From positions 1-41,427 of the forward strand of contig JAYZQJ010000147.1 in the NCBI GenBank assembly GCA_036149055.1: a stretch of DNA of 41,427 nucleotides, given 5' to 3'. The position numbers were made by a program, and so were the translations under genes. Below the pieces are notes generated by a model. It ran no database searches. It was not told the origin of the DNA and saw nothing but the letters and a program-made list of their open reading frames with translations. This document shows, piece by piece, positions 33,092 through 38,370 of this stretch (positions are counted from its first letter, which is position 1; the number at the start of each line of letters is the position of its first letter). The DNA comes from Myxococcota bacterium. Lineage in GTDB: Bacteria; Myxococcota_A; Polyangia; Polyangiales; Sandaracinaceae.

Positions 33092-33760
33092 TCACGCGAG
33101 ATCCTCTCCGCCCGGAATCCAGGCCGCCGCGATCACGTGATCGGCGGCCCGCACGAAGCGCCCGGAGATGGTGAAGCCGGCCTGGAAAGGCGCGGCGCGC
33201 CGCTGGAACACGGCCTCGAAGCGATCCCCTTCGCCGTGCCGGATCACGACGTCCTCGAACTCCAGGAACGTCCCGCTCAGCGGGTACTGACACTTGTAGG
33301 CGGCCTCCTTCGCGCAGAAGGTGCGCCGGGCCCGCTCGCCGGGGCGCGGATCGTCCCGCAGGCTCGCGTGCTCCTCGCGGGTCGTGATCAGGCCCCAGAG
33401 CTCCTCCTCGAGCGCGGCGTCCGGCTCCGCGTCCAGGCCCAGCCCGTCGAGCTCCCGCGCGTCCGCGACCGCGGCCACGCACAGGGTGTCGGTGTGGGTG
33501 ATGGTGCCCACCACGCCCTCCGGCCAGAGCGGCTCCCCGCGATCGCCGCGCCCGATCGACGCGGCCGGGGCCCCGAGCTGGCGCAGGGCGTCCCGCGCCG
33601 CGTCGCGCCCGGCGGCGAGCTCGAGGCGCCGCTTGTCGACCGCGCGCGCGGCCAGGGCCTCCTCCTCGGGCCGGAGCGCCGAGAGGGGGACCTGACCCGG
33701 CACGCGCACCGCGAAGCGCACCCGGGAGCCCAGAAGGGCGCGTAGCGCCTCCTCGATCAC
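33092..33760 (-). CDS. 4'-phosphopantetheinyl transferase (EntD/Sfp-type)
   Basis: Motifs KRRLELAAGR..ARDAL, GEPLWPEGVVGTITH, GLGLDAE and FCAKEAAYK. GTG start overlaps the NRPS stop. Confidence 0.93.
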   Translation of the reverse strand: MIEEALRALLGSRVRFAVRVPGQVPLSALRPEEEALAARAVDKRRLELAAGRDAARDALRQLGAPAASIGRGDRGEPLWPEGVVGTITHTDTLCVAAVADARELDGLGLDAEPDAALEEELWGLITTREEHASLRDDPRPGERARRTFCAKEAAYKCQYPLSGTFLEFEDVVIRHGEGDRFEAVFQRRAAPFQAGFTISGRFVRAADHVIAAAWIPGGEDLA

Positions 33761-36700: not shown

Positions 36701-38370
36701 GCCTCGAAGAGCTGGTGCACGCCGCGGTCCCGCGGGAAGTCCTTCGCGGTGTCGTTCCAGCCCTCGAGGATCTGGCGGCGCTCGCTCTCGGCGAGGAGCG
36801 GCAGGTCGCCGACCTTCGTGTCGTCGCCGCCCTGGAGCAGCGCCTCGAGCTGGCGTCGCATCGCGTCGGCCTGCGCCGGGGCGAGCCGCGCGGCGTCGAA
36901 GACCAGCGCGGCGCGGTTGCCGTCGGTGATCACGCCGGCGATGGCGCCCGCGGGCAGCTGCCAGCCGTCGAGCGCCGAGACCTGCTCGGCGACCACGTCG
37001 TAGCTCGGGCGGTGCGCGCCCGGCTGGCGGTGCAGCAGCTCGCGGGGGTAGGTGCCCTTCGCGTCGACCTTCGCCAGCTCCTTTTCGGTCGCCTCGAGCA
37101 GGGCCGAGAAGGGCGCCTCGAGGTCCACGCTCAGCCGCATCGGCACGCGGTCGGCGTAGAGGAGGGCGCCGCCCTCGACCGCCTCGGTCAGCGACGGCGG
37201 GCGGTGCGCCACGTCGAAGACGTGCTTGCCGCCGACCCGGGCGAGCCAGGCGCCGAGGCCGGCGAAGAGGCGCGCCGGCTGGGCGGTCGCCTCGATCGCG
37301 CGGCGCTCCACCTTCGGCGCCGCGTTGGTCGCGTGATCGGCCTGCGGGATCTTGGCCGCGTCGAGGCTCTCGAGCCGGCGCGTCCAGAACGCCTCGTGCT
37401 TGGCCATCGCGCGATCGAGCTCGCCGAGCCGCTTCCGGACCGCGGGGCTCGAGACCAGGCTGGCGCCGGGCTGCACGCCGAGCGCGTGGGCCGCCTCGGG
37501 CGTCAGCGCCCGGCCCTCGCCGTCGAGCACCCGCGGGAAGAGCAGGGTGCCGGTCTGGGTCGCGACCTCGAGGCCGTCGTCGTCGATCCCGACCACGGTG
37601 CCCGGCTCCTCCGAGGTGCTGTCGGCGGCCCGCTCGACCTCCGGCAGCAGCAGCACGCCGCGGTCGAGCACGACCTTCGGCGCCCCGACCGGGTTCGGGT
37701 AGCGCCCGTAGTCGAGCGCGCGGACGAGCGCGTCGATGGCGTGGGCGGGCTGATCCCAGTCGATGGTCGAGCCGCCCTCGGGCCGATCGTACTTGCCGAA
37801 GTAGGTGCGCTTCTCGAGGTCCTGCACCGTGCGGTCGACCTCGCCGCGGCCGAGCTTCTCCACCAGCTGCCCGAAGGTCTCGATGCCGAGCTCGTAGCAG
37901 CGGGTGTTGAGGGTGAGCGCGGTCTCGCGATCGCTCATCTCGAAGAGGCGCTGCGCGAGCACGTCGCCCTCGTCGACCCCGCCCTCGATCATGTGGAAGG
38001 TGACCCCGTGGGTCCGCTCCCCGTGGAGGATCGCCCAGGTCGTGGCGTTGAGGCCGGCGTAGCGCGGGAGCGGGCCGTCGTGGAAGTTGATCGCCCCCTC
38101 GGTGGGCTTGGCGAGCACGTCGTCCGGGATGATCGACAGGTTCGCGAGGCTGAAGAACCACTCGAACGGATCGTCGGACAGCCGCGACGCGAGGTCCTTG
38201 CCGGGCGCGACCACGGGGAGCCCGCGCTCCTCGGCCCAGCGGACGATGTCCTCGGCGGCGGTGATCACCCCGAGCACCTTGTGGCCCTCGTCCAGGAGGA
38301 GCTCGGTGCACTGCACGAGGAGAGATTCGCTGCCCATCACGTAGCAGCGGAAGGGGCGTTCGGCGGTCAT
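33757..38370 (-). CDS. Single-module NRPS-like protein: formyltransferase, C-domain remnant, adenylation domain interrupted by a luciferase-like monooxygenase (MupA/Atu3671-type), PCP
   Basis: F domain: INFHDGPLPRYAG and GVTFH..VDEGD. A domain: LTYAEL, YTSGSTGKPKG, FDISVLE. LLM (~36015-34960): FSLFYF, VWTPERHFH.FGG.YPNP, EEWSLVDNLSNGRVG, ACLIDFG. The A domain resumes with QCTPS, VGGEA, NMYGPTE, YRTGD and PLTPNKKIDR. PCP: FFELGGHSL. Confidence 0.93.
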   Translation of the reverse strand: MTAERPFRCYVMGSESLLVQCTELLLDEGHKVLGVITAAEDIVRWAEERGLPVVAPGKDLASRLSDDPFEWFFSLANLSIIPDDVLAKPTEGAINFHDGPLPRYAGLNATTWAILHGERTHGVTFHMIEGGVDEGDVLAQRLFEMSDRETALTLNTRCYELGIETFGQLVEKLGRGEVDRTVQDLEKRTYFGKYDRPEGGSTIDWDQPAHAIDALVRALDYGRYPNPVGAPKVVLDRGVLLLPEVERAADSTSEEPGTVVGIDDDGLEVATQTGTLLFPRVLDGEGRALTPEAAHALGVQPGASLVSSPAVRKRLGELDRAMAKHEAFWTRRLESLDAAKIPQADHATNAAPKVERRAIEATAQPARLFAGLGAWLARVGGKHVFDVAHRPPSLTEAVEGGALLYADRVPMRLSVDLEAPFSALLEATEKELAKVDAKGTYPRELLHRQPGAHRPSYDVVAEQVSALDGWQLPAGAIAGVITDGNRAALVFDAARLAPAQADAMRRQLEALLQGGDDTKVGDLPLLAESERRQILEGWNDTAKDFPRDRGVHQLFEAQVDATPDAQALVYRGSALTYAELDRKANQLAHRLVGLGVKADTPVGLCTDRGLDLLVGALGILKAGGAYVPLDPTYPKDRLAFMVEDSAAPVIVTLSRTQDVLPEGDATRVVLDQEDLSAQPTERPAPEGWSSDKLAYLIYTSGSTGKPKGVMVEHRNVANFFTGMDAEIPHQPPGRWLAVTSLSFDISVLELFWTLARGFTVVLSSDEDRALVSGGGAGVSQYSHRKIDFSLFYFASDEGENATDKYKLLLDGARFADENGFAAVWTPERHFHAFGGLYPNPSVASAALSTITKNVKLRAGSCVNPLHHPVRVAEEWSLVDNLSNGRVGISFAAGWQPNDFVIRPEAFENNKQRMIDEIDVIRRLWRGEAVTFEGPTGPVEVKTLPRPVQKELPFFITAAGNPQTFELAGKLGGGILTHLLGQSVDEAKEKIEVYRKAWKDAGHPGEGHVVLMLHTFVGDDEESVKEVVREPMKAYLKSSMMLIQQHAWSFPAFKKHAREDKSFKDNFLNLSAEDTDALLDHSFERYYETSAMFGTPESCREQVERCRGIGVDEIACLIDFGIDSQTVLEHLPQLNALRAAATAPREDISEDDYSIAAQLGRHAITHMQCTPSMAQMLVMNDEARAALSGLKHLMVGGEAFPGALAKALREATSATITNMYGPTETTIWSSTEKAEPGEGTVAIGTPIANTQLYVLDERRQPVPVGVPGELYIGGDGVTRGYWKREELTGERFVSDPFRGGEARMYRTGDEVRWREDGHLEFLGRMDHQVKLRGYRIELGEIEARLRLHDSVREAVVIAREDTPGDKRLVGYVVTDGALDAGALKAHLGETLPDFMVPAHLVKMDRFPLTPNKKIDRKQLPRPEAAVTRAEEHVAPAGEVEEKIADVWKRILGLSEVGTRDNFFELGGHSLLAVQAHREIVEATGAKLTVTDIFRFPTIAALADHLEGDGGSNEALQKSADRAAARRQALGRRRVLRRR

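Follow-up and report, generated by a model that had tools for sequence, protein, structure and literature searches.

We have analysed a stretch of 41,427 nt (the window; contig JAYZQJ010000147.1 of the Myxococcota assembly GCA_036149055.1, family Sandaracinaceae) in which positions 33757..38370 of the reverse strand encode a single-module non-ribosomal peptide synthetase (NRPS) of 1537 aa. Its domains follow one another as a formyltransferase (F), the C-terminal lobe of a condensation (C) domain, a glycine-type adenylation (A) domain split by a luciferase-like monooxygenase (LLM), a peptidyl carrier protein (PCP) and an Arg-rich tail, i.e., F - C-lobe - A(Gly)[LLM] - PCP - tail. We give about an even chance to the complete reading, in which the protein would be the starter module of a two-protein line, composed of this NRPS and of a polyketide synthase (PKS), that builds an acyl group with which a Wzy-dependent exopolysaccharide (EPS) is decorated. 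Its starting points are observations: the domain anatomy of the line, the intact residues of its domains, and the co-occurrence and synteny of its genes.

Architecture of the module

The open reading frame has no internal stops and a GC3 of 0.98. Along the protein, Pfam recognized Formyl_trans_N (residues 79-164), Formyl_trans_C (202-290), AMP-binding in two pieces, AMP-binding_C, Bac_luciferase (798-1112, E 4.5e-55) and PP-binding (1440-1504). The original prediction, made by a reader that saw only the letters of the sequence, had proposed an intact F-A(Gly)::monooxygenase-PCP architecture. The reading frame, the Pfam and TIGR04020 matches and the positions of the motifs bear this out, and the protein is indeed a single module, although its C-lobe, its partner PKS and its location among exopolysaccharide genes had been missed. 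The PCP (33859..34053 by Pfam; all features are on the reverse strand unless stated otherwise) keeps its serine, S1468, in a GGHSL motif. Neither a C domain nor a thioesterase (TE) was found downstream by Pfam, so that the cargo must be handed on. AlphaFold gave confident models of both F plus linker (pLDDT 95.8) and A[LLM]-PCP (pLDDT 89); in the latter the insert matches PuwE-Ox (6KET) at TMt 0.90-0.92.

The formyltransferase (37501..38370, residues 1-290) has N- and C-terminal subdomains of the ArnA/FMT type. In alignments with LgrA-F and with formyl-tetrahydrofolate (formyl-THF) dehydrogenase, N95-F-H97 and D133 fall on the catalytic motifs, and the same N-H-D reading was obtained in 180 of the 183 F-bearing sequences examined, in agreement with the earlier impression that the N-x-H and Asp residues were intact. 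Residues ca. 320-535 (36766..37413) match the C-terminal lobe of C domains (hhalign probability 99.3, E 4e-20); the lobe with HHxxxDG is missing and the remaining one is presumed to be structural. This call rests on hhalign, as a fold search with the model of F plus linker gave formyltransferases only among the ranks shown. The nearest folds and sequences of F itself are ArnA, FMT and the sugar N-formyltransferases, which, in an EPS cluster, might suggest that it formylates an amino sugar in the manner of ArnA and not the PCP-bound glycine. We consider this extremely improbable, since F occupies the place of the N-lobe of the C domain, and since an F-C-lobe-A head identical in kind starts an LLM-free two-module NRPS of Mycetohabitans that lies outside an EPS locus.

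The A domain comes in two parts, one with motifs A1-A4 and residues D744, I745 and L748 of the specificity code (36067..36765), the other with A5-A10 and Q1167, M1193, G1195, M1218, I1226, W1227 and K1412 (34096..34929). Motif A4 (SFDISVL) begins at residue 742 and A5 (NMYGPTE) at 1217, hence the LLM (34960..36009), which according to TIGR04020 spans residues 788-1137, lies between A4 and A5 as had been predicted and, more finely, between code positions 239 and 278. These positions follow the PheA numbering. Anchored on the motifs, the code reads DILQMGMIWK, the same that had been deduced by eye. The half behind the insert has its best solved match in DhbF (5U89), where the code ends in Q-L-G-L-I-W; module 1 of DhbF is specific for Gly. 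LgrA A2 matches this half but lacks the DILQ code and was discarded as a glycine reference. The pattern DILQxGxxW appeared in 319 of the 323 A-embedded LLM modules examined (three were partial and one odd), a sample that was gathered by likeness to this LLM and is therefore not independent.

The first steps of the route would then be the priming of S1468 by the adjacent 4'-phosphopantetheinyl transferase (PPTase), the loading of glycine by the A domain, and its N-formylation by F from 10-formyl-THF. The last step would replace the N-acylation performed by the full C domain of MtaG-type modules, leaving only the C-lobe of that domain as a scaffold. Jointly, we regard these three steps as very probable.

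Homologues of the module

Formyltransferase, LLM and AMP-binding domains were found together in 118 of the 120 best homologues; the 7421 of 8000 candidates below 1e-50 do not measure the size of the family, as ordinary NRPSs are among them. The nearest named relatives are Sandaracinaceae. Homologous loci come from Myxococcota, Proteobacteria, Planctomycetota, Chloroflexota, Acidobacteriota, Gemmatimonadota, cyanobacteria and others, and there are plasmid-borne ones in Ruegeria, Paracoccus, Aminobacter and Rhizobium. In a tree of the LLMs (FastTree only, effectively unrooted, with no clade test and with the F-type P-rows thinned to one in four), 93 of 94 F-type LLMs fell into one clade (support 0.961), alongside five C-type (C-A[LLM]) and 12 unassigned or truncated rows. 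A WxFPAF segment is present in 88 of the 94 F-type LLMs versus 3 of 122 C-type ones, and judging from the sequence it may shape a pocket for a formyl instead of a long acyl group.

The partner PKS and the Arg-rich tail

The same genome encodes a PKS (C62:4833-11345) that shares 55% identity, over 2163 aa, with the one encoded behind the module in other loci. It is composed of ketosynthase (KS), acyltransferase (AT), ketoreductase (KR), dehydratase (DH), acyl carrier protein (ACP) and TE, with all motifs intact (GxSxG plus His in the TE), and two GT2 glycosyltransferase genes come next. NRPS and PPTase (C147) and PKS and GT2 (C62) are thus on separate contigs, as they are in two other genomes (G380 and G355). 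Among 68 F-type loci, 46 had a PKS within the fetched flank, typically KS-AT-KR-DH-ACP-TE. Of 401 Myxococcota genomes, 30 contain both the LLM (31 genomes in all) and the KR-DH region (32 in all), and 368 contain neither; in these counts kin are not independent, and the lone LLM-only genome is 86% complete. We have little doubt that the NRPS is partnered with a PKS of this KS-AT-KR-DH-ACP-TE type.

The C-terminal tail (33760..33858) is a putative docking helix for the KS of this partner. Two of its arginines are invariant among 40 aligned rows. An Arg-rich tail was present in 33 of 34 homologues with the PKS in the locus, in 7 of 7 rows (six distinct) with the PKS elsewhere, and in none of the eight homologues where no full partner PKS was found (48 rows could be placed with the anchoring pattern and 15 ends, mostly from the remainder, were assigned by eye). 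The N-termini of the partner PKSs are short and mostly acidic. A predicted complex of the KS dimer with PCP-tail reached 0.37 versus 0.02 for the best control, the runs agreeing in at least 77% of the contacts with a partner pLDDT of at least 70, where marks of 0.60 or less were those of 18 of 157 solved complexes and of both mismatches (2 of 215) that passed. Carrier-KS complexes have already been solved, so likeness may explain this prediction, which weakly supports docking of the tail on the partner KS. In the proposed route the tail would dock on the KS of the C62 PKS, which would carry out one extension with malonyl or 2-substituted malonyl, followed by reduction and dehydration.

Likely substrate of the embedded monooxygenase

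The LLM, with its family-specific WxFPAF segment, scores 504 bits with TIGR04020 (MupA/Atu3671-type LLM; cut-off 244), and its nearest solved relative is the PKS-associated PuwE-Ox (E 3.5e-115). It shares family model and fold with MupA, OocM and PuwE-Ox, but these act on beta-ketoacyl-ACP in PKS contexts, whereas this LLM sits in a glycine A domain. MupA is described in the accessible text of PMC10952193 as a two-component flavin mononucleotide (FMN) monooxygenase that needs the beta-ketoacyl-ACP and is inactive on the beta-hydroxy form. By analogy, unoxidised formyl-Gly could go to the PKS, and the LLM could hydroxylate in trans C2 of the PKS-bound N-formyl-4-amino-3-oxobutanoyl thioester, to give a 4-formamido-2,3-dihydroxybutanoyl or a 2-oxo acyl group for the EPS. 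The kinship with PuwE-Ox and the nearly constant presence of the partner PKS in Myxococcota are in favour of this timing. We find it nonetheless unlikely, as the LLM is intact in homologues where no PKS or KS was found, and as C or TE domains, not KS, follow most C-A[LLM] modules in cis.

The partner KR-DH region was not found in the genomes of seven F-type loci (L065, L069, L105, L080, L112, L072 and L075) and gave only a partial match in that of L120, and there was no KS at 1e-30 in the five PKS-less genomes tested. Seven scored F-type homologues of this kind retain 87-89 of 90 core LLM columns. F-type modules without a PKS would hand their unit to an LbH acyltransferase encoded nearby (L065, L069), to a fused TE (L105, L080) or to a Cy-A-Ox module of thiazole type (L072). 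Among 122 C-A[LLM] modules, the next element in cis is a C domain in 70, a TE in 10, a KS in one, the end of the protein in 39 and something else in two; the 80 followed by C or TE have therefore no beta-keto substrate in cis.

We consider it likely, from these comparisons of sequences, that the LLM oxidises the alpha-carbon of formyl-Gly-PCP, which we favour over beta-keto hydroxylation because PKS-less homologues keep the LLM intact and because A-embedded LLMs sit in glycine-code A domains. With O2, and with FMNH2 from a reductase acting in trans, the product would be N-formyl-2-hydroxyglycyl-S-PCP. A flavin reductase is found beside the cluster in L103 and L063.

The hemiaminal formed in this way could also split on the PCP into formamide and glyoxylyl-S-PCP, which would then be the true starter, and from which the PKS would make a 4-oxo-butenoyl or related aldehyde directly. 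The extension of a released keto-acyl-PCP reportedly has a precedent in zwittermicin. No methyltransferase able to protect the hemiaminal was found in any of the 187 F-type modules, so that the hydroxy-formylglycyl unit could collapse, and collapse is the chemistry proposed for MtaG/MelG. For these, alpha-hydroxylation of glycine is described in the available part of PMC11411415 as a proposal only, as the original prediction had also said. Conversely, in 40 of the 122 C-A[LLM] modules, many of them internal, the A domain that holds the LLM has an FkbM-type methyltransferase inserted as well, as expected if the hemiaminal hydroxyl is capped, which suggests that hydroxyglycine is often kept in such modules. 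Collapse would, besides, waste a formyl group whose catalytic residues stay intact nearly everywhere (180 of 183). As a route of its own we hold it to be rather unlikely, and within alpha-carbon oxidation, retention of the hydroxy-formylglycyl unit appears somewhat likelier than collapse on the carrier. The loading, N-formylation and oxidation of glycine advanced originally are thus the best-supported reading, by the conserved glycine code and by the LLMs kept without a PKS; of the two outcomes given for it, the glyoxylyl unit is a possible one, less favoured than N-formyl-(hydroxy)glycyl-PCP. Against oxidation of the glycyl unit with retention stand the beta-keto requirement of MupA, the status of the MtaG/MelG mechanism and the missing protecting methyltransferase; in addition, the PKS-less genomes are metagenome-assembled genomes of unstated completeness, for which absence of the PKS means "not found" only, and no biochemistry on any family member was found in the literature searched.

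The exopolysaccharide locus

The gene is threaded into an operon for EPS export. The Wza/OPX polysaccharide export protein (38475..39512) is encoded directly upstream; downstream come, in this order, the PPTase (33092..33760), whose start overlaps the NRPS stop, a Wzc/Wzz-like chain-length determinant (31003..33030), a PssD- and PssE-like glycosyltransferase pair (30013..30995; pssD 30489-30995, pssE 30013-30492), and an NDP-sugar epimerase, an AsnB-type amidotransferase and a GT2, with which the operon continues (26105..30016). A divergent gene for a WcaJ-type priming glycosylphosphotransferase (39801..41216, forward strand) precedes wza. Further along, the same EPS region includes on the forward strand (4110..10858) a Wzy-like polymerase (4110-5537), a GT4 (5600-6844) and a Wzx flippase (9389-10858). 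The dTDP-rhamnose genes rmlB-A-C-D are at 587-3933 (rmlC was recognized by eye from the translation). A promoter scan gave nothing usable. Contigs from RNA libraries (seawater metatranscriptomes, near-identical strain) cover the NRPS, one of them bridging wza and NRPS, but contigs can show neither transcription nor a single transcript and they were not counted.

In at least 37 of the 68 F-type loci the flank contains a polysaccharide gene, versus 2 of 12 C-type loci, a lower bound, as the flanks are short and their labels were transferred by BLAST from Pfam-checked seeds. We find it fairly likely that the EPS is the destination of the acyl unit. Several facts count against this destination. 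With the same short flanks, 31 of the 68 F-type loci show no polysaccharide gene; of the 31 LLM genomes only 22 have the GT2 of the cluster, which is present also in 14 genomes without the LLM; and the window showed no acyltransferase that would act on EPS, transfer by the TE being an assumption. The distribution of the GT2 is compatible with a polysaccharide that is more widespread than its decoration, the latter being optional.

The product might instead be a free or glycosylated small molecule (a signal or an antibiotic), the EPS neighbourhood being due to shared regulation or mobility. The last domain of the PKS is a TE whose GxSxG and His are intact, a GT2 adjoins the PKS, polysaccharide genes are missing from the flank of many loci, and the available parts of papers on a similar cluster of roseobacters (see below) class it as secondary-metabolite, although they report its product as unidentified (PMC4337385, PMC5014874). 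This appears quite improbable to us, because the module is found within wza-wzc operons here and in relatives, because 14 genomes that lack the NRPS have the GT2 all the same, as they would if it were a general EPS enzyme, and because the off-loading partners vary (LbH acyltransferases and exosortase-associated hydrolase-like proteins).

Proposed extender unit and product

The AT of the partner has an xAAH motif in 37 of 48 cases. Its best PDB match is the hydroxymalonyl-specific ZmaA-AT, with 5YDA also among the closest solved chains, and a GAAH motif is described for a hydroxymalonyl-specific AT in the accessible part of PMC4207774. It lacks the GYSF and hydrophobic MxW motifs of the ZmaA type and has GHSLG and an Arg-containing pre-motif. 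A 2-substituted extender would be allowed, since the Phe of the malonyl-type HAFH is missing. The xAAH motif could be taken as a sign of a LLM acting on the PKS-bound chain; it bears, however, on the incoming extender and not on a later hydroxylation. Hydroxymalonyl(-ACP) was rejected as extender, as no FkbH was found in three of the five genomes searched (G000, our own, G085 and G228). A stand-alone B12-binding domain and MeaB are encoded directly upstream of the NRPS in three Agarilytica loci (L096, L103, L109; ca. 5981-7389), but mutase genes were present in 5 of 5 genomes and in 8 of 14 controls, and being so common they are uninformative about a supply of methylmalonyl.

In the last step of the route the TE would move a 4-formamido-4-hydroxy-but-2-enoyl-type group, a masked 4-oxo-butenoyl, onto the polysaccharide or a precursor. 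A single PKS extension leading to a 4-formamido-4-hydroxy-(2-alkyl)but-2-enoyl-type acyl group would be the most likely product; the exact product, the extender and the retention of the hemiaminal are all speculative. Corramycin was discarded as a precedent for a dihydroxybutyrate from Gly and a C2 unit, since the available part of PMC10099666 proposes glycerate as the source of its N-terminal unit; its module 4, where beta-Ala is hydroxylated, O-methylated in cis and then extended by a PKS, offers a loose analogy only. The EPS of Thauera MZ1T was likewise dropped as a known product, the genome paper mentioning neither PKS nor NRPS.

Variants and other genes of the window

A homologue from Silanimonas (L094:8537-11602) keeps F, LLM, PCP and Arg-rich tail with no A-domain match, and may be loaded in trans or decaying. 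In L072:7592-21068, modules of the kinds Cy-type A-T-Ox (thiazole-like) and C-A(Gly)-T come after F-A[LLM]-T (T for the carrier domain); this stretch also holds two hydrolases, a carbamoyltransferase and a Wzy-like gene, and the tail of its NRPS is acidic, not Arg-rich. In some variants the last module is C-A(Gly)-T, accompanied by hydrolases that weakly resemble exosortase-associated ones, below the cut-off. In three Ignavibacteria variants (L075, L078, L093) C-A[LLM]-T is complete and accompanied by a radical SAM protein and an LbH-type protein (an LbH-PCP fusion in L075), with, in addition, 2-oxoacid oxidoreductase-like genes and the same type of PKS in L078 and L093. NRPSs of ca. 2910 aa with C, A, PCP and A-embedded LLM recur in actinobacteria (P0131, P0134-P0136, P0144, P0154 and others). 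Starters of the type FAAL-ACP-C-A(Gly)[LLM]-T were found in Myxococcus/Archangium (L107:5783-12247, L122:5792-21024), and in L122 the AT of the next PKS has xAAH as well.

Within the window, positions 11093-17349 hold a second carrier-protein set, composed of a 2-oxoglutarate-Fe(II) oxygenase, a 392-aa protein, an AurF-like di-iron oxygenase, a small ACP, a DltA-like stand-alone A domain (code DLFFLCLIWK) and a polysaccharide deacetylase. Parts of it recur beside the F-A[LLM]-T loci L046, L073, L048 and L038, and it is possibly a second pathway for an EPS substituent. A run of lipoprotein-like genes with no Pfam match, plus two cytochrome c-like genes, is inserted in the EPS region at 17313-26041.

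Relation to known systems

A conserved four-gene cluster with the same gene types is known from roseobacters, the original description being reportedly that of Martens et al. 2007. Orthologues of its NRPS, type I PKS, glycosyltransferase and PPTase are all present here. The accessible parts of PMC4337385 and PMC5014874 describe it as conserved in 28 of 57 genomes and its product as uncharacterised. PKS, GT2 and NRPS (with or without the PPTase) stand in a row on plasmids of Ruegeria and Paracoccus; against the Ruegeria set our NRPS has 48%, the PKS 54% and the GT2 51% identity, and our PPTase 35% to that of Paracoccus. The match was made by gene content and order and not by the original locus tags, and the domain mechanism does not figure in the parts of the citing texts available. 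Whereas the roseobacter cluster is contiguous, in the myxobacterium it is split, with NRPS and PPTase in the wza-wzc operon and the PKS and two GT2 on C62.

With MtaG/MelG (myxothiazol/melithiazol; C-A[MOx]-T-TE, MOx being the monooxygenase) the module shares an A domain that has a Gly code and an LLM inserted between A4 and A5, and the LLM of a locus with MtaG-like architecture (L126) has 55% identity to ours. The differences are that here the module is a starter and not terminal, has F and half a C domain instead of a full one, and lacks a TE; the F-type LLMs, furthermore, form a separate FastTree group and carry WxFPAF. The F-A-PCP modules of the LgrA type, to which OzmO presumably belongs as a formylating initiation module, have in common with ours an N-terminal formyltransferase with aligned N, H and D, followed by A-PCP, with no upstream module, but ours has a full C-terminal subdomain of the ArnA/FMT type, the C-lobe spacer and the embedded monooxygenase. 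A survey of interrupted A domains mentions the monooxygenases only in passing (PMC8341866). The available parts of PMC5030684 (a biofilm plasmid), PMC4359443 (marine genome mining) and PMC8739492 (palmerolide) hold no mechanism for the family, and in the open-access literature, supplements aside, we found no paper on the chemistry of F-A[LLM]-PCP combined with a PKS. Each part has therefore a precedent, i.e., the formylating starter, the split A domain of the MtaG type and the orphan roseobacter cluster. New here are the split over two contigs, the co-occurrence in 30 of 31 genomes, the tail that tracks the PKS and the use of PKS-less variants as an argument about the substrate of the LLM.

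Possible biological meaning

It is improbable, in our opinion, that the NRPS-PKS pair hangs a 4-oxo-butenoyl group (an aldehyde and Michael acceptor), masked as a formamide hemiaminal, on the exopolysaccharide. If it did, the formyl group would be a built-in protecting group, and slow extracellular loss of formamide would unmask the electrophile, cross-linking the matrix or gluing surfaces that bear amines or thiols. The alpha-hydroxylation of PCP-bound N-acylglycine by MtaG-type modules has long been proposed, with no proof found, and F-A[LLM]-PCP is a simple system in which to test it, because it makes its own N-acyl substrate. For the roseobacters and the other bacteria that carry this cluster, the domain-level reading makes the product testable: it would be a glycine-derived, formylated and oxidised C4 acyl group on an exopolysaccharide.

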